Source of the DNA: Mantamonas sphyraenae STR306
Taxonomy: Eukaryota; Protista; CRuMs
Reading direction: 5' to 3'
DNA length: 64,000 bases
NCBI GenBank assembly: GCA_026936335.1
Contig: JAPMXV010000043.1
Location: 248,001-312,000 of the forward strand
The translations under genes and the position numbers were made by a program. Below, one piece after another: positions 19,162-40,800 of the stretch. The notes below the pieces were generated by a model. The model had not been told where the DNA came from and did no database searches. It was given only the letters and a program-made list of their open reading frames with translations. Numbering within the stretch: position 1 is the first letter of the stretch; each line of letters starts with the position of its first letter.

Positions 19162-19190
19162 ATGGCAAGAAAACACGAGTGTGAATTGGC

Positions 19191-19913
19191 TTAGTTCAGA
19201 CGCATCTTCTGGAATTTGGTACGCAGACGGTCGAGTTGCTCGCGCAGCTGATGCTCGAGGAGAGCAAAGCCGCTTTCGTGGTCAAACTGGATGTCGAAGC
19301 AGCCCAGGCCCACGGTGCCCAGATCCTTGCCAAAGAGGAAGGCCTGCATCTCGACGCAGGCAGAGACGTTGTACTCGGTCAGCGAGACGTTGGTGAGCGT
19401 GATGCAGATCTTGCCAAAGTGCACCCAGGGCGTCTCCACGCACACGTGCGGGTCGCTCAGCGAAACCGTCTGGTTCAGGATGACGTGCTTGCCCACGTTG
19501 ACGGCAAGGTCAAATCCGGGTGGTTTGGGGATGTAGGTGACGTTCTGTGGGGGAGGGGAAAGGGGGGGGGGTGAGCGCGTGGACAGGTGTGAGCGGAGTC
19601 GAGTGCTGGCGGGTCATTTCCAAACACCCGGCTTCTTGTTTTCGCCCTGGCATGTGAGGGCATGCAGCACGGGGAAACGTACGGCGCAGCACTCGTCGTT
19701 GATTTTGATGGCGTGGATGTCCACGTGTGCGCAGCAGTCGCACTGCATGGTCTTTTGGTCGCAGCGGCAAAAGTTTTGCGGGCTGAGCTTCTGAGCTGGC
19801 TGCAGCTCACGCAACGCCGGGGCGGTGTCGTCGTGTTCGGACGACGCACACACAGACAGTGCCACACAGAGGAGGGCAAGGACGCAAAGGAGAGCAGAGG
19901 AGGTCGAATGCAT
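19191..19913 (-). CDS. Secreted cysteine-rich protein, DUF4773-like. Exons 19913-19683 and 19544-19191.
   Basis: Signal peptide ALLCVLALLCVALSVCA. Cys pattern CxC..CxCC..C.NVTY.P..N.TVS...P..C..C..C..CF. Canonical GTACGT..CAG intron in phase 0. Confidence 0.7.
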
Positions 19914-19980: not shown

Positions 19981-21441
19981 ATGTCCGAAAGTGAGAAACA
20001 GGCGGAAACAACACAGGAGCAAGAGACACAGGAGACGCAGGAGACACAGGAGGTGACGGCGGTGGAGAGCAAGGCAGAAACCACGGAGGAGACGGAGAAC
20101 ACGGCAAAGGAAGAAGAAACGGAAGAGGAAGAAAAGGGGGAGGGGAACGGCAAAGCCCCGGAGGGCAAGAGTGGCAATGCAGAGGAGAGCAAAGGCACAG
20201 ATGGATCGGGACTGTCGCGATGGTTGGAACAGGCACTGATCCGAGGCGATCAGGTGTTGCGTTCGCTAAAGGAGAGCGCGGACACGGCCATCGAATCGAT
20301 TGACGACGGCGTGCAACGCAGCGGCCCCATTTTCAGCTCGGGGGCAGAGCAGATCACGCGGTTCTACTACGACACGGTGGGCCACCACGGCGGCTACGTG
20401 AACACAAGTGTGGAGGAGCAACAATTGGGCTACGGCAGCCTGCTCACGTTGAACAGCATCAAACTGGCCAGCAGCCACGCGGAGTTTGTGTACACCGTGG
20501 ACAACAACACGTCCTTGGTGAGCCGCTTCATGTATCGGGACATTTCACTGGCAGAATTGACGTCACGCTTTGGCGACAACGGCGTGCGGCGGTTGTTTGC
20601 CTTGATGGCAGTCCTGTCCGGTGTGGAGTACATGGCCACGCTTCCGGCTGCGTTTGACATCTCGTGTGTGGCCGACGTGTTTACGTTTTCGGCCGCCAAG
20701 CACATTGGCGCGTGGATGGGTGCCATGATGCAGGGCCACGCGGCTGCAAACGGCGCCAAGGGAGGCGTGTGGGCAGGCCCTGAGCTGCGCGCTCACTCGG
20801 CTGCATTTGCCACGGAGGATGAACATCGTGCGTCGCAGCATGTGAGCGTGAAGGAAGGCGAGTTTCAGGTGGAAATCGAGGCTGGAACGCCCGTGTTGTT
20901 GGATTTCGGCGACCTTGCAAGCGCAGTCGCTGCGGCGCTGGAGAAGCGCAAGCTGGAGGCGGCAGAGGCCGAGCAAGAGGCCAGTGGCGTGGAGGACCAG
21001 GGGGGTGCCGGGTTGGACTCCATCGATGGGGCGTACTTTGTGCAGAGGCACAGCGACGCAGAGATGCTCACGCTGCACGCGCGACACTACGCCTCGGAGC
21101 GGTTGAGCGACTGGACACAGGTGCGAGGGGCACAGGTGGAGGTGGCCATGCGTGTGGTGTCCATGCTGCCGGTTGTCTTGGCAGTCAATGGGCCGGCCAA
21201 GATGATTCTCGGCAGCCCTGCGCCAGCGCACGCCTTTGTCACCACCGACGCCGATGTCCTGGCCCTTCTCAACGCCGTGCTCGGCTCTGTGCCGGTGCTT
21301 GCCCACTTGTGTTTCTCTGTGCACAACGCTGCAGGGGCACTCACCTTCCCCGACGCAACATGTCTCGATGCAGCTGTGGATCCCGAGGCTGGCGTGGACC
21401 AGGCGGTTGTGGACGCGTTGCTGTCGGCAGCTGATGCATGA
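19981..21441 (+). CDS. Hypothetical protein (486 aa) with an acidic QET-repeat N-terminus
   Basis: Long ORF with backbone-like codon usage. ATG 19981 is divergent from the gene starting at 19913. Confidence 0.7.
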   Translation: MSESEKQAETTQEQETQETQETQEVTAVESKAETTEETENTAKEEETEEEEKGEGNGKAPEGKSGNAEESKGTDGSGLSRWLEQALIRGDQVLRSLKESADTAIESIDDGVQRSGPIFSSGAEQITRFYYDTVGHHGGYVNTSVEEQQLGYGSLLTLNSIKLASSHAEFVYTVDNNTSLVSRFMYRDISLAELTSRFGDNGVRRLFALMAVLSGVEYMATLPAAFDISCVADVFTFSAAKHIGAWMGAMMQGHAAANGAKGGVWAGPELRAHSAAFATEDEHRASQHVSVKEGEFQVEIEAGTPVLLDFGDLASAVAAALEKRKLEAAEAEQEASGVEDQGGAGLDSIDGAYFVQRHSDAEMLTLHARHYASERLSDWTQVRGAQVEVAMRVVSMLPVVLAVNGPAKMILGSPAPAHAFVTTDADVLALLNAVLGSVPVLAHLCFSVHNAAGALTFPDATCLDAAVDPEAGVDQAVVDALLSAADA

Positions 21442-21517
21442 CGATGGACCTGGTTGACGGGGAAACCTACATGAGGTGATTCATGAGGTGATCATGGTGG
21501 AACAGGACACGGAGATG

Positions 21518-21618
21518 TCATTCTCGGTGTGAAGGAAGAACTGGTGACCGTAGAGCTGAACGTGGAGGAAATGTGCGAAGAAGCGGATGGAAGCGGGGAC
21601 GACAGTGGTGCTGTGTGA
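21518..21618 (+). pseudogene. Orphan copy of the last ~33 codons of the LRR-ANK-coiled-coil gene (33198-36145)
   Basis: Encodes ILGVKEELVTVELNVEEMCEEADGSGDDSGAV* with no upstream gene body. Confidence 0.8.
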
Positions 21619-21673
21619 CCAATTCTGCAACGTTGTACGCTATCAACGTTTCCTGTTTGTAAATTCGTATCAT

Positions 21674-23536
21674 TCAACATGCCACGCGTATGCTCGTGAT
21701 GTGACCTTCGCTTCCTGGCGTGGAGGACGAAGCGCCAGCTAGGCCCACCTCCAGACTTTGCACGCGGGCCAACAGCGCATCAGTACTGGACTCGGCGTCA
21801 AGTACGGCCCCAGTGATGCGCGTGAGCTTTGTGACGATCTTGCGCTTGCTTTTCTGCAGCGACACGACGTCGCCTTGAAAGTCGTTGAGCTGAGACCGGA
21901 GTTCGGCCATCTCAGATGCCAACTCTTTGGTTTGTTCCTCGACGAGTGCCCGCACATCCTCGGAGACATCAGATTGAGCACCCATGCGCCGTCCAATCTC
22001 GTCCAGACGGCCTTGCGTCCCCTTTAGGCTGGAAAGGATGGCACGGCCAATGAGGGTGGTCACGGCGTGTGCCCGTGCGTTGTCCTGCTCTCTGACACGA
22101 GTGGCGTTTTTGAGCATGCACGTCGAAAGTGCATACATATCGTCCGCCATGGCGACCTCTTCCTCCAGACGCGTGGCAATGTTTTCGTGCTCATGCAGTT
22201 TCGTTTGAGCTTCGTCCAGCATTGCTTGGAATGTGTCCAATCGTTTCTTCGCCTGCACCAGGAATCGATTGTCAATGGATGACAAGATGTCATCATCGTC
22301 GTCGCTGTCTTCGCTGTCTTCTTCCTTCTCCTCGTTGTCCAGGATGCTCTGGACCTCGGCTACTTTTTCTTTGCACTCGGGGATGGTCATGTCTTCCAGG
22401 ATGCGCTTCCTTGCCAACACTGCAGTGAGTCTCGTTTGCAATTGAAGGTGTGTCGCTCTGGTTGTCTGCCCTTTGGGTGAGCTCACAATTGCTCACTCGC
22501 GATCCCATCCGCACCCATCCGCACACAATCCGCTCACCCACCTCTGTCTGCTCCTCAAGAACCGGTATTTCTTTGTTCAACGACGTTAGTGACTCATCTA
22601 CTGAGCACTGCGGTGCGGTCCCAGGCGGAGGTCGCTCGCCAGTGGGTCAGTCTTGGCGACAGTCTCGTCAAAGGCAGTTCCAGTGTCCTCCCAACGCCCC
22701 CTACCTTTTCCTCGAACCAGTCCGCTAGTTGCAAATCTTTCACGTCGTCAGGGATTGACATGGATTGCAGTTGCGATTCAAACTCCTGGCACAGGGGTAC
22801 CAACTCGTCTGCGATGTCCATCACACCATCTGCGCAGGCGTCCGCAAGCGCTTGGATGTAAGCAATCGTGGTGTGCCGAGTGTAGCTTGAGGAAGAAAGG
22901 GAAGCGTGGGCAACGTGAGTGGCAGGTGGCCATAGGTGTCCACTGCGTGGTGACCTGCCACCTGAGGGCTGTAGACCTTACCTAAGACGTCCTTGTATTG
23001 CATAAAGAGAACGGCCTCGGTTTGATCCAACATCATGGAAGCATCGGAAGCCCTGAGAATGACATCATGGGTGCGCGAGTACACGCGGTTTGCAGCGTCT
23101 AGGTCCAGCAACTCGGCGTCATTGTTTTCCAGCGCCCGAAGATGGACCAGCTGGAACTGGGTCACCAACTGTGCCAATCGACGCAGTCTGCCAGCCATCG
23201 TGATGGACGAACAGATCCTGTGTCAGCACAAAACTCTATGGGAGCCATGGAACATTGCACCCACCTGGGCTTGATGATGGACATGGCTAGTCGCTGAGGG
23301 TCGGAAACGCCGTCAACCTGCAGCACCTGCTCGTACATATCCGACATCTCCTGGACAACATCGGCAACCTTTCTGCAATCGCCATCCACGCTGACAATCA
23401 TGCCTATTGTAAGTACGACGTCCATGTGGTGACAGACAAACGAGTTGCTTTGGTATTTGCCCGGCTGGCGCCGTGCTTTCAACACACCAGCCCCTTGGGA
23501 AGCCCATCGAAGCCTCTCAAACAGTGAGCGACACAT
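21674..23536 (-). CDS. Coiled-coil protein, copy A (mirror of 31279-33142)
   Basis: Same 5-exon model as copy B. Differs at A/V and G/V codons and by a 1-nt indel inside an intron donor (GTAGGG vs GTAAGG). Confidence 0.55.
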
Positions 23537-23677
23537 AATGGATTCGCCTCGGCAGAAATGACTTGGCGTGAAACCGGACAACGTCACTCCACGGGTGAGG
23601 ACAATGTGAATGCCCGATGACACGAGGAAGCAGGGCGTTGCGTTTTCCCGGCTGCAAGCAAGCTTTTCTTTTCACCC

Positions 23678-24556
23678 ATGATCGACGAAGAGAACACCTT
23701 CCACGACGCTTTACTTCCCCAGGACAACTACGAGGAGCAGAAGGAGAGAGAGCGACGTGAACAACAACCACAGGAGCCGCTCCCGGATGCCAAGGCTACA
23801 CAAGCTGGTCCCCGAGTAGCAACCACGGGCGAGGACGTTGTCATCCCCCCTGAGGTGGAAGAAGAATGGGCCCGTCGTCGTGCTGAGAATGAGATCAACA
23901 AAGACGGTGTGGTCCTGAAAGAGGTCACGAACCAGCTGCGGGAGCAGTGCCATGGCGAGGAAAAATTCGTGAAAACACTTCGCTACTACTCCCGAGCAGA
24001 TGAGAGCCTGGAAAGGGCAAAAGAGCTCAAGGTGGCGTACATACTGCTAGCAGTGTTTGTGATGCTGCAAGCATTCACTGGTGCCGTAGGTATTGCTTTT
24101 TCCGTGCTGGGTTTGGTGTGCTGTGGGTACATGTTGTACGCACTCAGAGGTCAAAACCCGGCAGCGGCCAATACTGTGGCCAAAGATCGTACGGTGACCA
24201 AGAAGGAAGGGCCGTACATTCATGCCGCGGCGATTCAGGGGCGGCGGGATGACCCCACCCTGACCAACGCAAAACTGGTGCACTTTGAGCACGTGCTGCA
24301 CTACAACACAGTCAGCTCTGGCTGGGCAGCCTTCCATGCCAAATGGTACAAGATTGTAGCATACTGGGCGATCTTTCTGCAAATCATCGGAACCATTGTG
24401 GGAATAGCCACAGTAGCGTCCCCTCCAACAGAGCAACCATTCTTTTTCGGAACCGTTGTTTTTTCCGTGATGTGCTTCGTGTACGTTGTCCACGGATACA
24501 AGTACTGGGTGGCAAAGAATAAGGAAAACACGACGTACACGTTCGGGTGGAATTGA
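23678..24556 (+). CDS. Uncharacterised 4-TM membrane protein, copy A (292 aa)
   Basis: Acidic N-terminus and four hydrophobic segments. Paralogous to 30260-31138 and 36417-37283. Confidence 0.8.
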   Translation: MIDEENTFHDALLPQDNYEEQKERERREQQPQEPLPDAKATQAGPRVATTGEDVVIPPEVEEEWARRRAENEINKDGVVLKEVTNQLREQCHGEEKFVKTLRYYSRADESLERAKELKVAYILLAVFVMLQAFTGAVGIAFSVLGLVCCGYMLYALRGQNPAAANTVAKDRTVTKKEGPYIHAAAIQGRRDDPTLTNAKLVHFEHVLHYNTVSSGWAAFHAKWYKIVAYWAIFLQIIGTIVGIATVASPPTEQPFFFGTVVFSVMCFVYVVHGYKYWVAKNKENTTYTFGWN

Positions 24557-24731
24557 GGATGACCCTTGAGCTTGCTGTGAGGAAGTGAGGTGGCGGCGCG
24601 AGGGGAGGCGAGGCGACGAAGAAAGGGACCAATGAAGGATGAAGGCACTGCATGAGCATGTGCTGGGTCTGTATGCAGGAAAGGAGGGGGACGAGAGACT
24701 GGTCCTTCCATCAAAGCAGACGTTGCGGGAC

Positions 24732-27700
24732 TCAGGCACCGAATCCTCGCTCCTGTTCCACGCTTTCCTCGCTCCTGCCCACAACTTCTGACATGTCCAC
24801 TGTTCGCATTCTGTTCAGAAACTCAAACACTGCGGAGACCTCTTCGGGTGGGATGTCAACTTCGTTGCCGCCAGCGGAAAGTCCCGATGTGATTTGGTAC
24901 AACATCTTCTCCGTGTCCTCGAGGTGCTGCATCATCACACCGCGTTCACGCATGATTTTCTCATCCATCATCCAGCCCAAAGTCTTCTCATGATTCCTGC
25001 TCAATTGCTTCAAGGCCCGCTTGAACTGCTTGACGTTCACCTTGCTGTTCATCTCTTCCTTCAAACTGTCAATTTGCTCCTGTTGCGCTGTTTGCGTCAT
25101 AGTCAACGCCAAGTACAAGTCAGCCTCCCGCTCCAACTGGCTGGAGCTGTCAATGTTGACGCATTTCAGCTCGTGAACAATGCGTGAGAAAGTGGGCCGC
25201 TCTTTCGGATTTGTCTTCCAGCACTGGGTGATGATTGCCTCTGCCCACTTCGGGATTGTCCCGTCCTCCACGTATTCTTCCAGTTCCTCGCGTTCATCTT
25301 TGTTTTCCAGGAGCATCACCATCAATTCCGATTGCTCTATGTCTGACCATGGCCGTGTCTCAGTGAACAGTTCCCACAACAGCACACCGTAGGCAAACAC
25401 ATCCACCTCCCTGCCATACCTTCGAAGTCCCAACTTTTCGTGCGTCGAGCTTCCGTCTCCACCATCATCTGCATTGCTGCTGCTGTTGCTACTGCTGCTG
25501 CTGCTGCTGCTGCCGTTACTACTACTGCTACTGCTGCTGCTGCCTTGGCTCCGGTTCTTTCCTCGGCGCAAGGGACGACGGTTTCTGCTTTGCCCCAGCA
25601 TGAGCTCTGGAGCCATGTAGTGCCATGTGCCGGCAACGTTCAAAGTCTTTCCGCTCTTGGATGCCGAGATTTGCAGGCACATGGCCAACCCGAAATCGGC
25701 AACTCGGGCGACTCCATCGCCATCCAGCAGCACATTTCCGCTCTTGAGGTCACGATGAACCACATTCTGGCTATGAAGATACTCCATTCCGGATGCAATC
25801 TGGATAGCCATCGTGTGCTTCTGAGAATTGTTCAGAGGGCGGCGAAACTTGTGCAGAACATCTTCAAGGGATCCGTTTTCGCACAGTTCTGTGCAGATGC
25901 AAATGTGTCCTTCCTCCGCACAGACTCCAAGTAGTGGCAGCACGTACTTGTTGTTCATCTTGGCCATCGTTGTGACCTCTCGCTCAAAGTCAAGGACGCT
26001 GAACAAGTCTTCCGAGAACTGCTGCATGGTAAACATCTTGACAGCTACTTGCACACCATCTACAGTGCCCCTGTACACTTTACCTGTGGCACCTGTGCCC
26101 AGAAGCTTGCCAGAGTCGTACGTGATCGCATCCGCACTCTTCATCATATTCGTCCCGAGCAGCCGCTGCAGTCGATCTCGTGCTGTCAAGGCCTCATTAG
26201 GCTCGTTTGTTGCACTCATTGTGTCATCTGACTCTTCAGTAAGCTCACCTTGATCTTCACCTGCGCTGGTTCCTTCTAGGATTGCGAGAACGTCTTCGTG
26301 TCCGCCCATTTTGGCAAGCTGCACTGCGGTTTGACCGTGCGTACTGCACGCCTCCAAGTCTGCCCCGTAGTCCATGAGCACCCGTACAACCTTCCCCTTG
26401 CCCGCGTAAGCTGCCATCATCAACGCAGTGGCCTTGTCTTTGCGACCTTGATTTACGGAAGCACCTCGGCGGATCAACAACTCAACAGCCTCCACTTGGC
26501 CTTGCGAACTAGCATACATGAGAGCAGTTTGACCACGTCCCATGGTTCCGTTGGGATCGACGCGCCTGTCCAACATGCAATTCATCACCTCGAGATGGCC
26601 GAGGTACGCTGCCATGATGAACGGTGTCCACCCGTCGCTGGTTTGTCGATACACATGTGCTTTGTGCTCCATCAGAACTTCCACACACTTCGCATGATTC
26701 TTTGTGGCAGCCATGTGCATCGCCGTCCAACCCTTGTTGTCCACAGCGTTAACGTCCAGATCCAGCGCAATAAGCAGGGCAATGGTGTCCGCCTGTCCGT
26801 GCTGCGCAGCGGCCATCAGAGCTGTGTATCCATTGCGCTTCGTTGCAGTGACCTTTGCTCCTGCGCGAACAAGTGCGGCTATGCACCCAAGGCTTCCCAT
26901 AGCTGCAGCTGTCATCAAGGGTGTCTCACCGTCACTGTTGGTGTACCCACAATCTGCACCATTGGCCACCAGCATTCCTGCGCACTCCATATGCCTCCCT
27001 TGCCACGCAAGCACGAACGGGGTAACGTAGCGAGCCACGGTTGCCTCAGTCCTTGCCCCGGCCTTTACCAACATCTCAGCAACCTTTGTGTGACCGTTTT
27101 GGGCCGCAGAAAACAACGCTGTCCATCCGCTGCGCTTCCTTGCGTTTGGATCAACACCACTCAGCAGCATGATCGCCACGCACCCCTCATGTCCACCCAT
27201 TGCAGCAACCATGAGGGGTGTCCACTCTTCAAACCGAGCATCCAAAGAGGCCCCTGCTTGTACCAGCAATAGGAGACAGGTGCCTTCGCCGGCATTGCAG
27301 GCGGAAAACATCGCGTTCCACCCGTTGGGCTGGCATTTGTCCAGGGAGGCACCCGCTTCAATCAATGATGCCACAACTTCAGCTTGACCGCGTCGGGTGG
27401 CGTGCATGAGCACCGTTTCTCCATCGGGTGTTGATGCGTTCACGTTTGCTCCACCCTTGATAAGCTCGACCGCGCATCCCTGCTCCTCGTTGACGATCGC
27501 CATGATCAGGGGTGTCGCTCCGTTGGAGAACGCGGCGTCTGCTTTTGCTCCACGTTGTAGCATCATCCGCACCAAGTCACGGTGACCTTTCAACGTTGCA
27601 ATGCCAAGGGCAGTCGCGCTGTCGTTTCTGGCTTCCAACTCTAGGTTCGCATCCAAAAGGAGCAACCGCAGGCACTCCTTGTGTCCCTCCTGGCATGCAC

Positions 27701-29397
27701 TCATGGCTGCCGTCCAACCATCACTTTGTTTTGCGTTGGAATCCGCCCCTTCTGCGAGGAGAAAGGACACTATGTTGCTGTGTCCCTTGTGGCACGCAAA
27801 CATGAGGGCGTTCCATCCCTCTTCATCTTGATCGTGCACGTTCGAAACTTCCAGCAAAGACTTGACAATGCTCAAATGAGGCTCTTGACACGCTAACATC
27901 AGAGGCGTGCGCCCATTGGACATGGGGATGCGTCCGTTTGCCTGGTGTTTGACGAGCTCTTGAACACATTCAAGTGAGGAGCAAGACACGGCTATTCCCA
28001 GAGGAGTTCTTCCGTGTGTGTCTCGGTGGTCGACGTTTGCACCTGCGTCACACAGAACGCGGACAACGTGATCGTGGCCTCCATTCGATGCCAACGAGAG
28101 GGCTGTCCACGAGAGACCGTCGTTTGCCAGCTCCAGTGAGGCACCATGATCAAGCAGACACCTCACAGAATCAATGTCTCCCAGTGACGAGCTCCACATC
28201 AGGGCAGACCATCCGTGTTGCTGTGTTGCGTTCACATCCGCTTGCGCGTGGGCGAGGCACTGGACAGTCCCCGAGTGCCCATTCTCAGCTGCCAGAAGAA
28301 TGGCCGTGGCGCCTACATCTGTGGTTTCCCAGTTGAGCGTCGAATTGTCAAATGCCAGTAGTTCGATACAACATGTGCTGTGCCCTCCTGCGGCTGCCAA
28401 ATGCAAGGCAGTCCATCCTGTCTCAGATCGGATGGTGCCATCCGCACCCAACTCAATGAGGCACTTGACTACTTCTGTGTTTCCCAGTTTGGAAGCACGC
28501 ATCAGCGCAGTTAGACCGTCAACGTCCAAAGCGTCCACAGCTCCGCTTCGCAGAAGAAGTTGCGTGAGTTCCGAGTTTCCGTTGCCGGCGGCGACGGACA
28601 ACAAGGACACACCACCTGGACGAACCGATTGGGAGGGATCAGACCCCGATTGAATGAAACGGCTTGCAGCGTCGGCGTCGCCCAACAAAATTGCCCAGGG
28701 CAGACCCTCAGTTGCCCGCCTTTCGCATTCTTGGTACACGGTTCTGGCAGCATGAATGAGAGTGCTTGCATCTGAAGCATCGCCTTCGATGAAGTCTAGG
28801 ACGCCAGCGTGCAAGAGCGAAAGGCGGTCGTCCTTCACGTGACACAGAGAGGACACATGTCAGCGATGGTACTGCGTTCCAACGTATGTACTGCGCGCCG
28901 TATCCACGCAAAACACTTTGCAACATACCCTAGTCATGGATCCTCCATGCAGGATCACGAGCGGTGCTCGCAACTCGTCCGCTTGCAATTCGTCGGCAAC
29001 GGCCAAGATACCATCCAGAGAGCCCCTATCCCATTCCAAAATACTGCCAACGTGCGTTGTTGATGTCCGAGATGACCAAGGTCCCACAGTGAGCCGTGCA
29101 TCGATGCCGGAGAACTCGACTTGCAAGTGATCGACACCTTTCCACCCTTGATACATCAAGGCACGTCCCCAAAATCACGCAAACACCAAGGTGTCAGTTG
29201 TCAAGCTTCCCCTAGCCACAGCTCACAACCAACCTTGTTGGATGGTGGCGACCCGATTCGCGTCTGAAACGAGAATCTGCAAATGTAGACTCTTACAATG
29301 AGTGTCAGTTCACCCTGCCGCTCTCCAAGTGTGCTGCCCTGCTGACAACATCATGCGCTCTGGGGTGCGAGCTTACTCTTTCACTTTTGCGTGACAT
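24732..29397 (-). CDS. SPRY-like + about 24 ankyrin repeats + TKL protein kinase + helical C-terminal domain. Exons 29397-29377, 29276-29234, 29146-28929, 28832-24732.
   Basis: Ankyrin GWTALMxA repeats. Kinase motifs GTGATGKV, VAVK, HRDLKSGN, DFG, APE, DVFAYG. Three phase-compatible GT-AG introns with CTGAC branch points add MSRKSERILVSDANRVATIQQGWKGV. An alternative start is at 29475. The 5' exons are less certain than the ankyrin-kinase body. Confidence 0.85.
25476..25541. repeat. (CTG/CTA)n microsatellite encoding a poly-Ser insert in the kinase domain
   Basis: Directly visible trinucleotide run. Confidence 0.85.
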
Positions 29398-29504
29398 TGT
29401 CTTGGAAATGAGTTCCAAACTCTGCGAGAGGTCCCGTGCTTTTTCACTGCCACAAGAGGAGCAAGCAATTTTCATCCAAAATCGACAGCGAAAAATATCA
29501 GAGA

Positions 29505-30084
29505 CCTGGAAACCAAACAAGAACGAGAGGAACTGGAAGAATACGTGGAGGACGGGACAATCCCGAAGTGGGCAGAGGCAATCATCACCCAGTGCTGGAA
29601 GACAAATCCGAAAGAGCGGCCCACTTTCTCACGCATTGTTCACGAGCTGAAATGCGTCAACATTGACAGCTCCAGCCAGTTGGAGCGGGAGGCTGACTTG
29701 TACTTGGCGTTGACTATGACGCAAACAGCGCAACAGGAGCAAATTGACAGTTTGAAGGAAGAGATGAACAGCAAGGTGAACGTCAAGCAGTTCAAGCGGG
29801 CCTTGAAGCAATTGAGCAGGAATCATGAGAAGACTTTGGGCTGGATGATGGATGAGAAAATCATGCGTGAACGCGGTGTGATGATGCAGCACCTCGAGGA
29901 CACGGAGAAGATGTTGTACCAAATCACATCGGGACTTTCCGCTGGCGGCAACGAAGTTGACATCCCACCCGAAGAGGTCCCCGCAGTGTTTGAGTTTCTG
30001 AACAGAATGCGAACAGTGGACATGTCAGAAGTTGTGGGCAGGAGCGAGGAAAGCGTGGAACAGGAGCGAGGATTCGGTGCCTGA
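29505..30084 (+). pseudogene. Headless duplicate of the kinase 3' end (last ~190 codons)
   Basis: LETKQEREELEEYVEDG...RGFGA* matches the kinase C-terminus. It has no ankyrin or catalytic core, and there is an in-frame stop at 29392. Confidence 0.8.
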
Positions 30085-30259
30085 GTCCCGCAACGTCTGC
30101 TTTGATGGAAGGACCAGTCTCTCGTCCCCCTCCTTTCCTGCATACAGACCCAGCACATGCTCATGCAGTGCCTTCATCCTTCATTGGTCCCTTTCTTCGT
30201 CGCCTCGCCTCCCCTCGCGCCGCCACCTCACTTCCTCACAGCAAGCTCAAGGGTCATCC

Positions 30260-31138
30260 TCAATTCCACCCGAACGTGTACGTCGTGTTTTCCTTATTCT
30301 TTGCCACCCAGTACTTGTATCCGTGGACAACGTACACGAAGCACATCACGGAAAAAACAACGGTTCCGAAAAAGAATGGTTGCTCTGTTGGAGGGGACGC
30401 TACTGTGGCTATTCCCACAATGGTTCCGATGATTTGCAGAAAGATCGCCCAGTATGCTACAATCTTGTACCATTTGGCATGGAAGGCTGCCCAGCCAGAG
30501 CTGACTGTGTTGTAGTGCAGCACGTGCTCAAAGTGCACCAGTTTTGCGTTGGTCAGGATGGGGTCATCCCGCCGCCCCTGAATCGCCGCGGCATGAATGT
30601 ACGGCCCTTCCTTCTTGGTCACCGTACGATCTTTGGCCACAGTATTGGCCGCTGCCGGGTTTTGACCTCTGAGTGCGTACAACATGTACCCACAGCACAC
30701 CAAACCCAGCACGGAAAAAGCAATACCTACGGCACCAGTGAATGCTTGCAGCATCACAAACACTGCTAGCAGTATGTACGCCACCTTGAGCTCTTTTGCC
30801 CTTTCCAGGCTCTCATCTGCTCGGGAGTAGTAGCGAAGTGTTTTCACGAATTTTTCCTCGCCATGGCACTGCTCCCGCAGCTGGTTCGTGACCTCTTTCA
30901 GGACCACACCGTCTTTGTTGATCTCATTCTCAGCACGACGACGGGCCCATTCTTCTTCCACCTCAGGGGGGATGACAACGTCCTCGCCCGTGGTTGCTAC
31001 TCGGGGACCAGCTTGTGTAGCCTTGGCATCCGGGAGCGGCTCCTGTGGTTGTTGTTCACGTCGCTCTCTCTCCTTCTGCTCCTCGTAGTTGTCCTGGGGA
31101 AGCAAAACGTTGTCGAAGGTGTTCTCTTGGTTGATCAT
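30260..31138 (-). CDS. Uncharacterised 4-TM membrane protein, copy B (292 aa)
   Basis: Mirror of 23678-24556. N-terminus MINQENTFDNVLL vs MIDEENTFHDALL, plus one T/I change. Confidence 0.8.
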   Translation of the reverse strand: MINQENTFDNVLLPQDNYEEQKERERREQQPQEPLPDAKATQAGPRVATTGEDVVIPPEVEEEWARRRAENEINKDGVVLKEVTNQLREQCHGEEKFVKTLRYYSRADESLERAKELKVAYILLAVFVMLQAFTGAVGIAFSVLGLVCCGYMLYALRGQNPAAANTVAKDRTVTKKEGPYIHAAAIQGRRDDPILTNAKLVHFEHVLHYNTVSSGWAAFHAKWYKIVAYWAIFLQIIGTIVGIATVASPPTEQPFFFGTVVFSVMCFVYVVHGYKYWVAKNKENTTYTFGWN

Positions 31139-31278
31139 GGGTTAAAAAATGGCTTGCTTGCAACTGGGAACGACGAACGCCCTGCTTCCTCGTGTCATCG
31201 GGCATTCACATTGTCCTCACCCGTGGAGTGACGTTGTCCGGTTTCACGCCAAGTCATTTCTGCCGAGGCGAATCCATT

Positions 31279-33142
31279 ATGTGTCGCTCACTGTTTGAGA
31301 GGCTTCGATGGGCTTCCCAAGGGGCTGGTGTGTTGAAAGCACGGCGCCAGCCGGGCAAATACCAAAGCAACTCGTTTGTCTGTCACCACATGGACGTCGT
31401 ACTTACAATAGGCATGATTGTCAGCGTGGATGGCGATTGCAGAAAGGTTGCCGATGTTGTCCAGGAGATGTCGGATATGTACGAGCAGGTGCTGCAGGTT
31501 GACGGCGTTTCCGACCCTCAGCGACTAGCCATGTCCATCATCAAGCCCAGGTGGGTGCAATGTTCCATGGCTCCCATAGAGTTTTGTGCTGACACAGGAT
31601 CTGTTCGTCCATCACGATGGCTGGCAGACTGCGTCGATTGGCACAGTTGGTGACCCAGTTCCAGCTGGTCCATCTTCGGGCGCTGGAAAACAATGACGCC
31701 GAGTTGCTGGACCTAGACGCTGCAAACCGCGTGTACTCGCGCACCCATGATGTCATTCTCAGGGCTTCCGATGCTTCCATGATGTTGGATCAAACCGAGG
31801 CCGCTCTCTTTATGCAATACAAGGACGGCTTAGGTAAGGTCTACAGCCCTCAGGTGGCAGGTCACCACGCAGTGGACACCTATGGCCACCTGCCACTCAC
31901 GTTGCCCACGCTTCCCTTTCTTCCTCAAGCTACACTCGGCACACCACGATTGCTTACATCCAAGCGCTTGCGGACGCCTGCGCAGATGGTGTGATGGACA
32001 TCGCAGACGAGTTGGTACCCCTGTGCCAGGAGTTTGAATCGCAACTGCAATCCATGTCAATCCCTGACGACGTGAAAGATTTGCAACTAGCGGACTGGTT
32101 CGAGGAAAAGGTAAGGGGGCGTTGGGAGGACACTGGAACTGCCTTTGACGAGACTGTCGCCAAGACTGACCCACTGGCGAGCGACCTCCGCCTGGGACCG
32201 CACCGCAGTGCTCAGTAGATGAGTCACTAACGTCGTTGAACAAAGAAATACCGGTTCTTGAGGAGCAGACAGAGGTGGGTGAGCGGATTGTGTGCGGATG
32301 GGTGCGGATGGGATCGCGAGTGAGCAATTGTGAGCTCACCCAAAGGGCAGACAACCAGAGCGACACACCTTCAATTGCAAACGAGACTCACTGCAGTGTT
32401 GGCAAGGAAGCGCATCCTGGAAGACATGACCATCCCCGAGTGCAAAGAAAAAGTAGCCGAGGTCCAGAGCATCCTGGACAACGAGGAGAAGGAAGAAGAC
32501 AGCGAAGACAGCGACGACGATGATGACATCTTGTCATCCATTGACAATCGATTCCTGGTGCAGGCGAAGAAACGATTGGACACATTCCAAGCAATGCTGG
32601 ACGAAGCTCAAACGAAACTGCATGAGCACGAAAACATTGCCACGCGTCTGGAGGAAGAGGTCGCCATGGCGGACGATATGTATGCACTTTCGACGTGCAT
32701 GCTCAAAAACGCCACTCGTGTCAGAGAGCAGGACAACGCACGGGCACACGCCGTGACCACCCTCATTGGCCGTGCCATCCTTTCCAGCCTAAAGGGGACG
32801 CAAGGCCGTCTGGACGAGATTGGACGGCGCATGGGTGCTCAATCTGATGTCTCCGAGGATGTGCGGGCACTCGTCGAGGAACAAACCAAAGAGTTGGCAT
32901 CTGAGATGGCCGAACTCCGGTCTCAGCTCAACGACTTTCAAGGCGACGTCGTGTCGCTGCAGAAAAGCAAGCGCAAGATCGTCACAAAGCTCACGCGCAT
33001 CACTGGGGCCGTACTTGACGCCGAGTCCAGTACTGATGCGCTGTTGGCCCGCGTGCAAAGTCTGGAGGTGGGCCTAGCTGGCGCTTCGTCCTCCACGCCA
33101 GGAAGCGAAGGTCACATCACGAGCATACGCGTGGCATGTTGA
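31279..33142 (+). CDS. Coiled-coil protein, copy B (about 503 aa). Model exons 31279-31550, 31598-31833, 31965-32110, 32209-32274, 32351-33142.
   Basis: Four GT-AG introns give one continuous frame of 1512 nt. The intron 2 acceptor is the least certain. Resembles the post-ankyrin part of the 33198-36145 protein. Confidence 0.55.
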
Positions 33143-33197
33143 ATGATACGAATTTACAAACAGGAAACGTTGATAGCGTACAACGTTGCAGAATTGG

Positions 33198-36145
33198 TCA
33201 CACAGCACCACTGTCGTCCCCGCTTCCATCCGCTTCTTCGCACATTTCCTCCACGTTCAGCTCTACGGTCACCAGTTCTTCCTTCACACCAAGAATGAAC
33301 TCACTTTGACCGATGACATTCTTCTTCAAAGCCAACACATCGTCTTCCATCGCTGCCAGACGCGTGCGAACCAGTTCAATTTCGACAGCGGTCATTCCAC
33401 CATCTCCACGTTTCTGGATTTCCGTTAGCCACTCTCTCATCTGAGGCTGCTGTTTGGCCAAAAATCGGATCGCTTTGCTCTGGCTGCTGCTGGAAGCCTT
33501 CAACGATTCGGTTTCGCGTCGGAGATCGCGAAGCGCGGTTTGTACCTCCTGCCTTGCGTCTGCATCCATTTCATGCAGATGTTGACACCAGGATACATGG
33601 TCAAAATGTACTGCATCCAGAATTTTCGCCTGGTTGCCTTGAATCTGCAGCAAGGCATCCAAGATCTGAGTTTGTGTATCCGCGTTTACGCTCTGCGAGC
33701 TAACGTCCGCGCTTGTGCCTTCAGTCAAGTCCAATGATGAAGAGTCAGCCAGCGATGACTTTTTCGCACCGATGTGTACCAGGGCATCATCAAGGTTTGA
33801 AGCGGTGCGACCCAACATCTCTTCCGCCGCGTTCACGGTAGCCAAGATGGCCTCTTGCTTTGCCGTCATGTCCGCCACCATCATGATTGCGTTGTCGCGC
33901 TCCTCTTGTGCATCCTTGTACGCGTCTGGAGACTCATCCTTCAAGAAACGTCGCATGGAAACCTCGGCTTGCCGTGCTTTGTCAACTTTCCTCCCCTTCT
34001 CCAGTTCCAGACGGCGGATCTCTGCCAGCAGTGAAGTGCAGGCAGACTCCGTTGCCATCTTTGACTCGTTCTCCATGCGGTGGAGTGATTGCAATCTCAA
34101 TTCCATCTGATCCACTGCATGAGCTGTTTCCTCCATGTGCAGCTTACACAACTCCGCGAGCTCCACCAGCGCTTTGCCCAGTCCTTCATGAAGCTCACAT
34201 AGTTTACCCAGTTGTTTGCTCCACACTTTTGCCTGCCTCTTGACGGCCTCCGCGTCGGCATCGTCCAGCTCAAACTCTTGTTGTCTTAGTTCAAGGTTGC
34301 CGATGTTTTCCTCCAGCCGTTGCAGACCGTGTGCGTATCGTTTGCCATCGTCATCAATGTCTTTGGCGTGAATCAAAACCGTTTCTCGCAGATTGAGGGC
34401 CATACTCCCAAGCCAAAGGCCGGGAGAAGAAGCTGGAACTCCAAGGGCTGCCTCCGACCACACACTTCCCCACTCCTGCGCAGCGTTTGCGTACGCCTCT
34501 TCACGCATCGATGTTGCGTTTTGTGCCCTGTTTAAGCACAGGTTTACAATGTCCATACTCGTTTGTAGCTCAGCCTCCCGCGCTCTGCTTTTCGATATCA
34601 TGGAATCTGCCCTTTGTCGTCTCTCCACGGCATGCGTGTGTGTCACAATCAACCGTTCCAGTTCTTCTCGATTCGTGTCCGCAAACACCTGAAAGCGGTG
34701 TTTGGCAGTTGTACACGCTGCGCTCAGTACCGCCCGGGCTTGTGCACATTGCTGAGCAGAGCCGCTCTTCACTTTGCTCAGCACCCGATGGTGAATCACA
34801 CCAACATTCTCACCCTGTAGAATAGCGCTCAAGTTGTTCACTAATGAGGATGAGTCGGACATGGGCAAAGAATGCGCACTCTGCTGCAGGACCTCCACCA
34901 CATCTTGCACATCCGCTTGCTGAGACTCTGGGCCAAACGCATCCAGTGCCGTACCCAAGTCCAGGATCCACTCCAATCCCGCCACGAAGGAGGCACAGGT
35001 GGCTGAAGTTGAATCAACCCAGCCGACACTGGAGAACGCTGAGACGAGAGCATCGTTGCCACATTCTGTGGCCAAGTCCATCGGGCTCCGTTTGTAGCCA
35101 CTCGGACGAGTGTGCGCATTGGCACCGTGATCCAACAGCCATCGACATAGTTCCTCGGATCCACTCGCCGCAGCCAAATGAAGGGGGGTGGTTTTCAGGT
35201 CTGGCCAAGTGTTCACGGACACCCCCCAATCAAGCAGCTCCTGCATTTTCACCAGGTCTGCATCACGGGTTGCTTTCAAGAGAGCGTTTGCGTGCACCTT
35301 GTTGCGCATGGTGGCTTTCTTGAGCACGCTGTCGCTGACACCAACGACAATCCAACAGGTTCTGTTGCTTTCAACGCCGGAACCCAAGGCTTCCGCCCCT
35401 TTTGCCTGGATTTCGTTCTTCTTCAACTCCAGCCGTTGCAACGAGCTGTTCTCTGAAATTCCCACACCCAATGCTGCTGCTCCTTCACACCCGATGTGGT
35501 TGCTGTTCAGGTCAAGGCGCTGGAGCGTCTGGTTGCAGCCTAAGCCCTTCCCCAAAGCTGTGCAGCCGATATCTCCAATCACATTCCCTGTGAGGTCTAA
35601 CCAATGCAGTGTCATGTTTTGTGACAGTGTTTGACCCAACGCTGTCGTACCTTCGTCCTCAATCTGGTTGTGGTTGACTTGCAAGACACACAGGGTTGTG
35701 TTCGAACGCAACGCTTGTGCCAAGGCGACTGTCCCTTGATTTCCAATGTGGTTGCCGTTCAAGTTCAGTTTCTGAACGGTGTTGTTCACCACAAGTGCTT
35801 TCCCGAGGGCTGCAGCACCTACGCTTCCAATGTGGGCGTTTCGCAAATCGACGTCGTGTAGAGTTTCGTTCTGCGTGAGCACCTGGGCGAGAGCAGCTGC
35901 ACCCTGGTCTCCGACATCGTTTCCATCCAGGTCCAGTATTTTCAATGTCTTGTTGAGCGATAGAGCGTGACACAGAATCTTGAAGCCGGTGATGCTAACG
36001 CCAAGTCGATGCAGCGCAAGGACCTGTGCCCTCTCAAAAGTTAGCTTGGGACTGCAGCAAACACCCACACCCACTTGCCTCCGTCACAACCATACCTCGC
36101 CAGCTCCTTGTACAGCCTCTCCCAATTCTTCCACATCTCCTGCAT
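33198..36145 (-). CDS. RI-like LRR (about 8 repeats) + ankyrin (2-3) + long coiled-coil protein. Exons 36145-36096 and 36030-33198.
   Basis: NxTLxxLxLxxNxIGxxGA repeats, TPLHLAAASGSEELCRWLLDHGA. A 65-nt intron GTATGG..GCTAAC..AG links MQEMWKNWERLYKELA to RAQVLAL. Confidence 0.85.
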
Positions 36146-36416
36146 CGTCAATGAGTGCTCTCCACTGCTCGCTCGAACGATCAACCATACTGCTTCTGCG
36201 TTCCCACGAGCGTTAGCTCGCTCTCTGGTCGGTCTGTTCAACCAATGGTATCACAGGGACAACTCTGTGCACCAGTGTCATACGTTGGCATTCGAAACAA
36301 CTCACGCAACGAAAGAATTTGTTTTTACGATTGGTAATCGCAACGCGTCGCTCCTCCGCGCGTGGCATACCAATTCAGTCGTCCTCCCCTCTGCGAAGGA
36401 CAATACAAAACGGTTC

Positions 36417-37283
36417 ATGGACAACGACCAACAGCTGAACGTGAACCTTCTTCCTGGTGACAACAGCGATGAAGAGTTGCTCAACTTTGTCGAACAGGAG
36501 GACGCACCAGTGCCTGACAGCATCGATGAATCATGGACTTCACGAAGGGAACAGAACACAGTAGATGATCACACGGTTGTCATTGCTTCGGAGAACATCA
36601 CCGAGCACATGCGCAAGCAGATCTATGGCGAAAACACCATAGAACAAAGGCTACACTTCTCGCACAAGCTCGCACACGATCGATTTCAGGGTCGAAACTG
36701 GCTGCTGTACTTGCTCCTGCTCGGCGGTGGGATTCCCTGCATATGGTTTAGTTTACCGAATGATTGTGGTCCGAATATGAACCTGAACTGGAGCGTTGGA
36801 ATCCTTGTCGTTGTGGCGTTGTTGTGCTCTGCGTTCTGGTTCAGGCTTTACAAAAGGGCACCCAAGCAGTTCTACCGTCAGCGTGTTGTCAAACACACTT
36901 TTCCTGACGTCATTGTTGCTGCAGGGATCTCGGGGACGGGAACAACGGTGACGTTGACAAACGGGCGATTGGTCCACAGAAGCTCGTCGCTCACGGTCTC
37001 CGTCGAGAGCGATGGTCTGATCCGCAAATGTCACCGCCTGCATATTATCACGTGCTTGATTATTGCTATCTGCGCGGTGACATCGGCTGTGATGTTCCCC
37101 CTCACTGAGACAGCCACCGTCGACACCTGGGGTGACCCGATATGCAACTCTGCTGGAATCGCCTTCATTCCAATGTGTGTGGGTGTTGGCCTTACCTACG
37201 TGCTTCTTTACGTGGCGTTCCTTTATGTGCTGAAAACCCGACAAAAAGAATTTGGATGGACGACGAGTGTTGTCAAGACCTGA
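36417..37283 (+). CDS. Uncharacterised 4-TM membrane protein, divergent paralogue (288 aa)
   Basis: Shares LLP.DN, W..RR..N, R.Q..GE, I.AA.I.G.....TLTN..LVH and terminal FGW with the 292-aa proteins. Confidence 0.8.
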   Translation: MDNDQQLNVNLLPGDNSDEELLNFVEQEDAPVPDSIDESWTSRREQNTVDDHTVVIASENITEHMRKQIYGENTIEQRLHFSHKLAHDRFQGRNWLLYLLLLGGGIPCIWFSLPNDCGPNMNLNWSVGILVVVALLCSAFWFRLYKRAPKQFYRQRVVKHTFPDVIVAAGISGTGTTVTLTNGRLVHRSSSLTVSVESDGLIRKCHRLHIITCLIIAICAVTSAVMFPLTETATVDTWGDPICNSAGIAFIPMCVGVGLTYVLLYVAFLYVLKTRQKEFGWTTSVVKT

Positions 37284-37373
37284 CAGGGAGGGAACCCCGA
37301 ATCTTCCACCATCAATGCCAACAAGTGCACACTGCAAGAAAAACTGTTGCATGTGGCAGCAATCTCAAACCCT

Positions 37374-37787
37374 TCATTCCAATTCTGCCTCCAACTTCTT
37401 GATGGTGCGTGCGGTGCGCGTCCACTTGCTCTTCCAGCGACGGAGACGTGCATCGATGCGTGCGAGCTTGGCACGCAGACGCGCACACGAGGTGCGCTTT
37501 GCGGTAGTGCTGCACTCTGCATTGGCAAGGCGCTTGTGCAAGCGAGCCTTGCGGTTGATGAGTCGCAGGCGGCGGTGAGCACGGCGTTGCTGCTTACCCC
37601 ACAGCGTGTGCACGTGGACCACCTTGTCCACACGAGCAGCCTTGGCACGCGCGTGCATCAGACGGCGCCCTGCATAGAGCGATCGCTTGCTTGCAGCGCG
37701 GAACTTGTCCGCTGCACGACGCAGCTCCTGCGACGCAGCTGCGTTGGTGGTGTTGATGATGGGTGTCTTGTTGTTGTCAATGTTGCT

Positions 37788-37820
<33 letters not shown>

Positions 37821-40800
37821 GATGATGCGGTTCCTGCGCGCAAACACACGCTGGAGCTGGCGACGACGGCGACGCAGGCGCCAGTGAGCACGTCGCTTCT
37901 CGCGCACAAACTGCCGTCCCACGGTGCCATCGACCGCCTGCACGAGACGCGCACGACGCAGCACACGCGCACGGTCTGCCTCAACGCTTCGCTGCAGACG
38001 CACAACTGCATCGTTGCTGCGCTGCGCCCTGCGCATGGAACGGCGCATGAGACGCTGGGCGTGGCGTGTGGCACGACGCAGGCGCGCCTTCATCACGGGT
38101 GAGTTGGGCGCACGCACGTTGTGCACAAGGGCACGCACGTGGCGAGAGGACAGGCGACGTTTGCGCAGACGGGCGGCGACACCTGCTCGCACACGCACGA
38201 TGGCCTTCCGACGACGACGCTGGCGCAGAGCACGTGCCAGCTGGCGACGGTGGCGTGCCAGGCGACGTTCGCTCTCGTTCAGGTGCTCGTGGGTCAGGCG
38301 ACGCGTGGCGCGAAGGCGTCCGTGCAGCAGGTTACGCAGTCGTGCGTAGCGCATTTGCAGACGCGTCACGCGACGCATGCGACGCATGGGTTGGTGTGAC
38401 GCCAGGCGGCGCGTCAGACTGGCCATGTGACGACCTGCGCCACGCGACGCCGCAAGCGAACCCGTGCCCAGCGACTTGCGCAACGCACGCGCATACAACG
38501 CAAAGTCTCGTCGTGCCCCACGGCGTGTCTTGCCACTGGCACGACGCACGCGGCGACGCAATGCATGCAGACGCTTGCGCAGCAGAGCCACCGATGTGCG
38601 ATCTGCACGCAGCCGTTGCTTCCAGCTGTGGTCCATGCGCTTGCGCAGCACGCCCATGCGACGACGCAGGCCCGTGCAACGCACCATGCGCACACGCAGG
38701 TTGCTGTATCGCGGCTTCTTGGACGCACTGCTGCTGCTGCTGCTCGACGGCGATGCCTCATCGGACACCTCCTCCGCAACAGCTCGCAACGATCCCTTGC
38801 CACCACGGATGGCCTGGCGCAGGTGGCGTCGCAGGCGTCGGTGTTCACGACGTGTGGCGCTGTAGCGGCGACGCAGACGTGCGTAACGAGCGCGTGCGCG
38901 GCGACGCATGCGACGCGCGTGACGCAAGGAGCGGCGCAGGCGACGTGCGCGGATGCGACGCAGAGCGCGGCGCGAGACGAGACGCTTGGCAGGACGCAGC
39001 TGGGTGCTCACGAGCTGCATGACACGTGCGCCATCGGCAGAGCGGCGGGTCAGGCGTTGGATCTTGGGTGCACGTGCACGCAGCACGGTGGCCTTGGCTT
39101 CCACCTGTCCCTTGCCGTGGACCGCACGTGCAGCCTGGGTGCGTGCGTTCTGCATGCGACCCACCACACGCGCCGCCTTGGCCACACGCACAGCCAACGC
39201 GTCGGCACTGCGCTTGGCTTCGTTCAGCTTGCGTTCGGCAACCAGCAGACGTTGCTGCAGGCGACGGCGACGGTGCACCGACACGCGACGGCGTGCCTCG
39301 TGTGCCGATCGCCCACGGCCCAAGCGACGCACCACACGGCCCAGTGCAGCCACACGGCGTGCGGTCGCAGCCTGGCGACGCGACGCGGCACGCAGGCGAC
39401 GGCGTGCGCGACGCAACGATCCGCGCTGGCGGCGGCGCTCCTCGCGTTCCACCGTACGGCGTGCGCTCAGATGGGTGGCCAGCACGCGCTGTTGCACGCG
39501 GCGCAGGGAACGCATGCGACGGCGCAGGCGACGTGCGCGACGTCGGCTGTGGGTTCGACCAAGACGAGCACGTGCGCTCGCCAGGCGGCGGTTGGCACGT
39601 GTCATCTGCTTGCGCATCAGTCCGCTGAGGTCCTGCACGCGTGCACGCAGCTTGGCCATTGCACGTGCGCTGGCGCTCTTGTACGCATTTGCGCTGCGGC
39701 TCTTGATCGTCGCACGGCGTGTGCGCAGACGTGCCTCACGCTTGCTCAGTGCTGCCAGACGCTTCTTCAACGCTGCCAATGTGGAGGCCTTGCCCTTGCT
39801 GTTGCTGTTGCTCTCCAGCGCACTCACGCGCGTTTGCAACTTGCCCTTGCGTGTCGCCAGTGCGGCCAGGCGACGGTCCATCATCTGCACACGCAGACGC
39901 ACGGTGCGCTGGTGACGCTCGCTGACCACCAGGCGGCGGCGAAGCAGACGCACACGCGCCTGCAGCAACGTACGCTGCAGGGTGCGCACACGCTGCACGC
40001 GTCGGTTGTACACACGACGCACACGCTGCAGAGCACGCGTGCGTGCCATGCTGCGACGGATGCTGGCACGGTGCTTGCGTCCCGGACGTGTCACACTCAG
40101 CGCCTTGCGTGCAGCACGCACACGTCGCAGATAGGTCTTGGCCGCACGCACCTGTGCCTGCAGCGCACTCACAAGTGCATTGCTGCGTCCGCGTGCAAGC
40201 GCACCCGCACGTCGTGCAGCACGCGTCTCGCGACGCACACGCCGCTTGCGCTGGCGGAAGCGCAACACACGTCGTTGGCTGCGCAGGCGGCTCTCGCGTC
40301 CTTCCAGCGCTGCAAACTGGGCCTTTGCACGTCGGCTGTGACGGCGTGCAGCAGCCACACGTTCTCGCAGCTCACCGATCTGTGTGTTGATCTGCGCCTG
40401 CGCAGACGCACTCTTGTGTGTGCCCGACGCCATGAGACGCGGCACGCGTGCTTGCAGACGTCGCGCAAGCTTGGCAAAGCTCAGGCGACGCCGGCGCAGC
40501 GCACGTCGGTGGCGGCTCACGTGGTGCAGCATGCCCGTCACAAACGCCTTGTGGGAACGCGTGTGGCGCCGTTCCGCAATGTGTTGGCGCGCACGGCGCA
40601 CCTCGGCGCGCTTCTGTGCGTCCAGCACACGACGCCACGCCTTTTTCATCGCCAAACTGTTGGCACGCAGACTGTGCAGGGCCGTGCGCACGTCGGCGCG
40701 ACGCAGGCGACGTTCCTTGCTCAGGCGCATCGAACGACCGCGCACGCGGCCCAGCAGACGCGCAGCCACGCGGTGGTTGCGTCGCTCTGCACGCAGCGCA

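Follow-up and report, generated by a model that had tools for sequence, protein, structure and literature searches.

The window analysed here is a 64,000-nucleotide (nt) stretch of the genome of Mantamonas sphyraenae STR306 (assembly GCA_026936335.1, contig JAPMXV010000043.1, positions 248,001 to 312,000 of the forward strand). Within it, two host genes converge on a 15,932-bp island (21444-37375; all positions are those of the window), which separates their 3' ends and for which a second allele without the island is present. The island contains seven genes, all with open frames under the predicted models, and under these models open coding sequence makes up about 81% of its length. The splice model of the helical genes was obtained by enumeration of GT-AG pairs. 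The genes encode four-transmembrane (4-TM) proteins, helical (coiled-coil) proteins, a leucine-rich repeat (LRR)-ankyrin protein with a helical tail, and an ankyrin-repeat kinase.

Genes of the island

There are three 4-TM proteins, all of them orphans: A (23678-24556, + strand; 292 amino acids [aa]; P0001), B (30260-31138, - strand), which is 97.9% identical to A, and C (36417-37283, + strand; 288 aa; P0002), which is 23-24% identical to A. Each of the two types has four hydrophobic segments. Types A and C are homologous (23% identity, E 3e-10), with a score that is reached in 0 of 1000 shuffles (z 19.9). They keep 70 identical residues; the four-fold degenerate sites at conserved residues match in only 11 of 37 cases, which is near saturation. 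Because these sites are near saturation while the residues are conserved, the A/C split appears to be old and to have been accompanied by constraint at the protein level; by this comparison the two types are old paralogs. None of 2957 candidates was a homolog of the 4-TM proteins. A two-sequence profile searched against 1.84 billion proteins gave one match, the NACHT-WD40-type protein P0006 (E 4e-4), which was rejected as a repeat artefact because its score is spread over 12 repeated stretches. The best value in the ESM Atlas, 0.80, is not counted as a homolog. No 4-TM match to known toxin or antidote families was obtained in Pfam, homolog, profile, PADLOC or NCBIfam searches, and metagenome scans found 0 related loci. 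The structure model is of low confidence (pLDDT 45) and has no Foldseek match at E 0.001; a designed four-helix bundle, the best fold candidate (VIA, Z 7.7, root-mean-square deviation [rmsd] 3.4, 115 aligned), is not taken as evidence. By these sequence searches, the 4-TM family is without a credible homolog.

Helical gene A (21674-23536, - strand) is predicted to have 5 exons, with an uncertain acceptor for intron 2, and to encode 503 aa in a frame that is open in both arms of the duplication described below; the product of helical gene B (31279-33142, + strand) differs from that of A by 2 aa. The LRR-ankyrin-helical gene (33198-36145, - strand), with a predicted product of 968 aa and one predicted 44-nt intron (36095-36052), joins ribonuclease inhibitor (RI)-like LRRs and ankyrin repeats to a helical tail of about 600 aa. 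This front end, which a preliminary description of the window had read from the letters, is confirmed by Pfam (LRR_6, E 2.8e-31; Ank_2, E 6.5e-9). A search with the LRR-to-ankyrin junction returned 35 generic ankyrin or LRR proteins, with coverage that never exceeded 59%. For the tail, 0 of 7995 candidates were homologs and nothing usable was present in the ESM Atlas. The AlphaFold2 (AF2) model of the tail is all-helical at low confidence (pLDDT 57) and has no Foldseek match; MLKL and HeLo are absent from its listed structural matches. The Snf7 hairpin (best Z 11.6, rmsd 1.0, 99 aligned) stands among many tied helical hairpins and is not taken as evidence, and XaxAB (Z 9.8) and YaxB (Z 9.7) fall inside the helical-hairpin background. 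A search of the island proteins for cell-death domains of the HET, HeLo/four-helix-bundle (4HB), NACHT or gasdermin type gave no Pfam match, and the 4-TM and tail models, at pLDDT 45 and 57, are too low in confidence for fold searches to exclude a domain of any of these types. Prediction of a complex between 4-TM protein C and the tail scored 0.00, which gives no answer. At 85% likeness, loose-ended contigs at 34263 and 35468-35512 suggest that further LRR genes are present in the genome; the one at 34263, from sequencing run X1, may represent a relative of the helical tail.

The kinase gene (24732-29156, - strand) has a predicted product of 1443 aa that ends in a helical tail and one predicted 96-nt intron (28928-28833). 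Pfam finds at least 19 ankyrin matches (Ank_2, E 1e-141) and a PK_Tyr_Ser-Thr domain (E 3e-55; 187.8 bits against a cut-off of 23.1), as expected for the ankyrin TKL kinase that had been described in this position. The catalytic motifs (Gly loop, VAVK, HRDLKSGN, DFG and APE) are intact, and relatives in the PDB include EGFR and CTR1. On these sequence features the protein is a member of the TKL protein kinases, with an activity that is predicted from its motifs. By eye, the first ~115 predicted residues (28700-29156, - strand) resemble what we take to be the end of a receiver (REC) domain; the separate exons matched no family, and a receiver domain at the N-terminus was set aside. Matches of the island proteins in PADLOC and NCBIfam were to generic ankyrin, kinase and coiled-coil entries, none at a curated NCBIfam cut-off, and were likewise discarded.

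An island-less allele and an inverted duplication

Contigs of four sequencing runs (X1-X4) were compared with the window. X1 and X2 are DNA runs from one study, and X3 contributes short pieces only (depth 4-6). X4, although recorded as "DNA?", resembles RNA: it covers the flanking genes and joins 19544 to 19683 by splicing (CT..AC). A joint from 21443 directly to 37376, with 30 letters per side, is present in two of the four runs, X1 (depth 13.6) and X2 (depth 20.5). The island-less allele in X2 departs from the window at 21443 and continues with 77 other letters; if 30 of these are the right flank, we infer that about 47 other bases stand in place of the 15,932-bp island. The left junction zone (21444-21517, 74 bp), which is spanned by an X2 contig (21408-21555), has an 8-nt word in common with the spacer of the other allele, so the true left break may lie slightly to the right of 21443.

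Contig depths in X2 are 54-57 in the flank, 30-33 (29.6-33.3) in the unique part of the island, and 61-65 (60.8-65.2) in the arms of the repeat described below; in X1 the corresponding values are 37-40, 22-24 and 44-46. Depth in the island is then about 0.6 of that in the flank, and depth in the arms about twice that in the island. The short X2 junction contigs are similar in depth with the island (21.9) and without it (20.5). When one X4-only site and a cluster at 20381-20525 that stems from a paralog are set aside, the DNA runs vary at 12 sites across 2.4 kb of the left flank and at 4 sites across 1.5 kb of the right flank, and no variant is listed in the 8.3 kb of unique island. Together, the depths and the joint make it likely that the 15.9-kb island is present on one of two haplotypes. 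The label "accessory island" in the preliminary description, and the presence/absence variation it had predicted, are thus borne out by the island-less allele in X1 and X2. X4 at 94% likeness has a single contig on 21250-37370, which ends at 21610; this contig (19971-21610) continues from the left flanking gene into the island. The island genes themselves are not covered by X4, a result that indicates neither silence nor expression.

Self-comparison of the window reveals one long repeat, in which arm A (21518-25311) is inverted relative to arm B (29505-33298), with 99.34% identity over 3,796 columns. Both arms stop within genes. Arm A starts with 100 bp from the 3' end of the LRR-ankyrin gene, leaving an orphan gene end (21518-21618, + strand) of about 33 codons that is recovered by tblastn with residues 915-951 of the LRR-ankyrin protein (E 3e-14). 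Arm B starts with the 3'-terminal 580 bp of the kinase gene, and the resulting orphan 3' end (29505-30084, + strand), which encodes the end of the C-lobe and the tail, is divergent from the kinase promoter. This duplicated 3' end lies within an open frame (29395-30084, + strand) in which an ATG at 29716 could yield the 122-aa helical tail alone. The arms are likely to be a real duplication, since X2 contigs span all four arm ends (those of arm B are covered by contigs 25551-29556 and 33261-37405) and the depth of the collapsed arms is about twice that of the unique island; an assembly artefact is judged unlikely. The contigs are compatible with either orientation of the inter-arm spacer.

The 25 differences between the arms are unevenly placed: 4 at the kinase end, 15 in a 74-bp patch, and 6 scattered over the remaining ~3.7 kb outside these two patches. 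The 74-bp patch (23640-23713, mirrored at 31103-31176; X2 contig 23610-23743) covers the 5' leader and the first 12 codons of the 4-TM gene, and in codons 3-12 there are 5 amino-acid changes and 1 silent change. This pattern suggests that the patch was either converted from a third paralog or left out of a homogenisation between the arms, with no choice between the two. Staggered-break inversions in Drosophila are described as leaving inverted duplications at the inversion breakpoints (PMC1885836, seen in part). The island is similar in that non-repetitive sequence is present in inverted copies and genes are truncated at the ends of the rearranged segment. The Drosophila duplications differ in reaching, in the portion of that report used here, a maximum of about 1.9 kb rather than 3.8 kb, and no ancestral allele is seen here. 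A template switch would produce the same picture.

Divergent gene order, composition and flanking genes

The preliminary description had emphasized three 4-TM genes, each divergent from a coiled-coil gene, and the arrangements are present as described, with ATG-to-ATG gaps of 141 bp (23536/23678), 140 bp (31138/31279) and 271 bp (36145/36417). The first two, called mirror copies, are indeed near-identical and inverted, but they belong to one 3,796-nt duplication, so only two independent cases exist. In these two cases the 4-TM sides are homologous and the partner sides not detectably so: comparison of the 503-aa model with the LRR-ankyrin tail gives z 0.63, a score reached by 120 of 500 shuffles, and a best BLAST E of 0.58, so that by sequence the helical partners have no detectable kinship. 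The head-to-head layout itself is common locally. In the flanks, where gene strands were taken from codon-score calls and starts were assigned separately, 7 of 22 adjacent-gene junctions are divergent, 4 of these 7 with gaps no longer than about 230 bp, and 14 of 22 genes face a divergent gene on their 5' side. At that frequency, two divergent cases are expected by chance about 4 times in 10. The proposals that the pairing had survived divergence and that it forms a conserved sensor/executor pair are consequently not supported. Since coiled coils diverge fast, an ancient duplication of the whole pair may nevertheless have occurred, with the partners diverging even beyond detection.

The layout recalls plant paired nucleotide-binding LRR receptors (NLRs) such as RGA4/RGA5 and RRS1/RPS4, which are alike in their head-to-head order, short shared intergenic region, and LRRs in one partner; the definition, as given in the part of the source consulted, is that both partners carry a nucleotide-binding (NB-ARC/NACHT) domain (PMC9528088). 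Here neither partner has such a domain, the partners differ between the two cases, and the layout is common in this genome. No NACHT or NB-ARC match was obtained in Pfam, in agreement with the preliminary description, and the P-loop (Walker A) motif is found in 0 of 5 island proteins scanned; its lone six-frame match is in a non-coding frame. Because the defining domain is missing, this is not a paired-NLR locus.

The GC content of the island (54.1%) is lower than that of the left (59.2%) and right (60.8%) flanks (p 4e-16; 31 island against 95 flank windows of 500 bp). A drop in GC had been described and is real, but the contrast given for it (52% against 68%) is not upheld: the value of 68% belongs to 38001-41000, inside an Arg-rich open reading frame (ORF), and the large ORF 3-6596, whose earlier EPG5 label has no Pfam support, is only 59.4% GC. 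GC at synonymous third positions (GC3s) is 0.57-0.64 in 6 island ORFs and 0.67-0.80 in 10 flank ORFs, a range that sets aside one wrongly framed ORF and a flank LRR-ankyrin gene (6617-8092, - strand) with a GC3s that is also low, 0.61. This flank gene is a paralog of the island LRR-ankyrin front end (27% identity, E 1e-26, across 315 aa) and shares its LRR-to-ankyrin junction; the C-terminus of the flank gene product, which matches no Pfam family, is by eye presumably F-box-like. Dinucleotide ratios of the island match those of the flanks. As had been stated, no housekeeping family is present, with no Pfam match to one in any of the 11 island ORFs scanned. Pfam likewise finds no transposase, integrase or capsid family among the island ORFs, no terminal repeat or target-site duplication is evident at the island, and four of four viral scans gave 0 confirmed relatives. 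A host-derived block is favoured over foreign DNA because of the host-like dinucleotide ratios, the flank paralog, and the lack of a viral relative, mobility gene or terminal repeat. The sequence evidence thus makes it likely that the gene families of the island are native to the host.

The left flanking gene (19981-21441, + strand) matches no Pfam family and ends 2 bp before the island. Within it, X1-X4 contigs match 20351-20564 with numerous mismatches (in X2 and X3, 19 substitutions) and then continue elsewhere, which points to a paralog. The right flanking gene (37374-41840, - strand) has a stop codon that straddles the right junction and encodes an extremely Arg-rich protein of 1488 aa; it has a signal-peptide-like start, a GC content of 66-68%, and no Pfam family. 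An exact 13-nt direct repeat, at 37162-37174 in the gene for 4-TM protein C and at 37371-37383 across the right junction, is probably due to chance. Farther out, the left flank contains another small RI-like LRR gene (12516-13130, - strand) and, in or beside a DUF4773 gene, a 20-nt insertion allele at 19176 (X1 and X4) and a 138-nt intron (19545-19682) that is removed in X4. The window as a whole is a compact, intron-poor stretch of eukaryotic genome, and the genes flanking the island include those for PCNA, TEDC1, MMS19, a carnitine acyltransferase and a flagellar NYD-SP28 protein, from which we infer that the host is probably a flagellated protist.

Function of the island and rival explanations

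The structural account (an island on one haplotype, a duplication within it, and gene families derived from the host) is very probably correct. The role is read more tentatively: from its domain content and a parallel in lancelets, the island may act as a dispensable cassette for recognition and signalling, and not as a series of conserved sensor/executor pairs, a reading to which we give somewhat less than an even chance. As a probable history, five older genes (the kinase, a 4-TM, the helical gene, the LRR-ankyrin-helical gene and the second 4-TM) would have stood as a block between the two convergent host genes, and a recent staggered-break inversion or template switch would then have added an inverted copy of 3.8 kb of this block. 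In the proposed cassette, the task of the LRR and ankyrin repeats would be to bind a variable ligand, for example a protein of a virus, a bacterium or a non-kin cell, and the ankyrin kinase would pass the recognition signal on by phosphorylation. The 4-TM proteins would act at the membrane, as anchor or output, with the long helical regions forming oligomeric scaffolds. In lancelets, defence and signalling functions are enriched among dispensable genes, which are often hemizygous, according to the section of the pangenome report consulted (PMC12373286). The island is similar in that a region with signalling and repeat-protein content is missing from one haplotype; it differs in being one locus, from a compact genome of flagellate type, known here from sequence alone and from one study, with orphan membrane proteins.

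Several points weigh against the cassette. The parallel with lancelets is an analogy drawn from animals; the ankyrin, LRR and TKL domains are of generic kinds; and no defence-specific domain (NACHT, NB-ARC, TIR or HET) is matched by Pfam in the island proteins. The splice model of the helical genes lacks RNA support. On the structural side, X1 and X2 are possibly the source of the window itself and so not independent of it, contig depth is not copy number, and both for the island-less contig and for the right island junction one side is only 30 letters long, one below the bridging threshold. A mixed culture would look the same as a heterozygote.

The rival that survives best, though it is itself unlikely, holds that the island is a dispensable segment without joint function, in which young or fast-evolving lineage-specific genes have been gathered by rearrangement and drift, weakly selected, as an ordinary structural variant. 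The truncated gene copies at both arm ends, the unrelated helical partners in a layout common in the flanks, and the low GC3s of the flank LRR-ankyrin gene would all fit such drift. It is less easily reconciled with seven open frames under the models, with intact kinase motifs, or with 4-TM paralogs whose conserved residues, despite near-saturated four-fold sites, speak of long protein-level constraint.

The layout of the island most resembles, without homology, that of peel-1/zeel-1 of Caenorhabditis elegans, an indel of 19 kb in which a novel four-pass toxin is accompanied by an antidote from an expanded host family, as summarized in the part of PMC3144186 consulted. An indel polymorphism of similar size (15.9 kb), novel four-pass membrane proteins and a neighbour from a host repeat family are common to both. 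By this analogy, the 4-TM proteins would be membrane toxins given to all progeny, with a linked soluble protein rescuing carriers only. That the arm differences cluster at the 4-TM start would suit a selfish element of this kind, which we nonetheless consider quite unlikely: there is no sequence link to any known toxin, the neighbours of the two diverged 4-TM types are unrelated to each other, and the ankyrin kinase is left without a role. Similarly doubtful is a broader version, a selfish or self/non-self supergene in which a hemizygous island encodes four-pass toxins or receptors, each checked by its divergent helical partner, with an ankyrin kinase relay, no NLR nucleotide-binding domain, and a palindromic duplication that diversifies the toxin N-terminus.

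Less probable still is a hemizygous mating-type or kin-recognition locus, in which one type would have the surface 4-TM proteins and kinase relay and the other would not, and in which lack of pairing would lower GC3 and tolerate a palindromic duplication. The one-haplotype state, the near-equal junction depths, the low GC3s with host-like dinucleotide ratios, and the membrane and kinase content are consistent with such a locus, and allorecognition by presence/absence has a precedent in Podospora het-V, as described in the excerpt consulted (PMC10890737). Like such fungal het loci, the island has linked genes that are present or absent between haplotypes; unlike them, it matches no HET or NACHT family and is known here from sequence. 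In addition, Pfam finds no transcription factor, the divergence of the flanks is only about 0.3-0.5%, and the material bearing on heterozygosity is from one study only. Finally, foreign DNA (a giant-virus, transposon or horizontal insertion with ankyrin and kinase cargo) is very improbable; giant viruses commonly carry ankyrin and kinase genes, and the island is a lower-GC, hemizygous insertion with orphan genes, but it has no confirmed viral relative in the four scans, no mobility or virion gene in Pfam, and no evident terminal repeat or target duplication of an endogenous virus or transposon, and it has predicted spliceosomal introns, a native paralog and host-like dinucleotide ratios.

The island is therefore more clearly accessory than the preliminary description held, and the chief argument for a conserved pair fails; the immune, allorecognition and toxin-antidote readings offered there may still apply. 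A hemizygous dispensable gene island is a known kind of element, and this one contains an orphan membrane protein family. Saturation of its silent sites shows the family to be old, but no credible relative of it was met among the billions of proteins searched. A literature search of limited coverage, with supplements outside it, found no description of such a protist island, and in free-living heterotrophic protists little has been charted of cell-autonomous defence, kin recognition or selfish toxin-antidote systems. If the island were only drifting structural variation, it would still show that multi-gene hemizygous blocks, hidden by haploid assemblies, exist in such genomes. The natural island-less allele in the same material provides a built-in control, so that the role of the island is directly testable.

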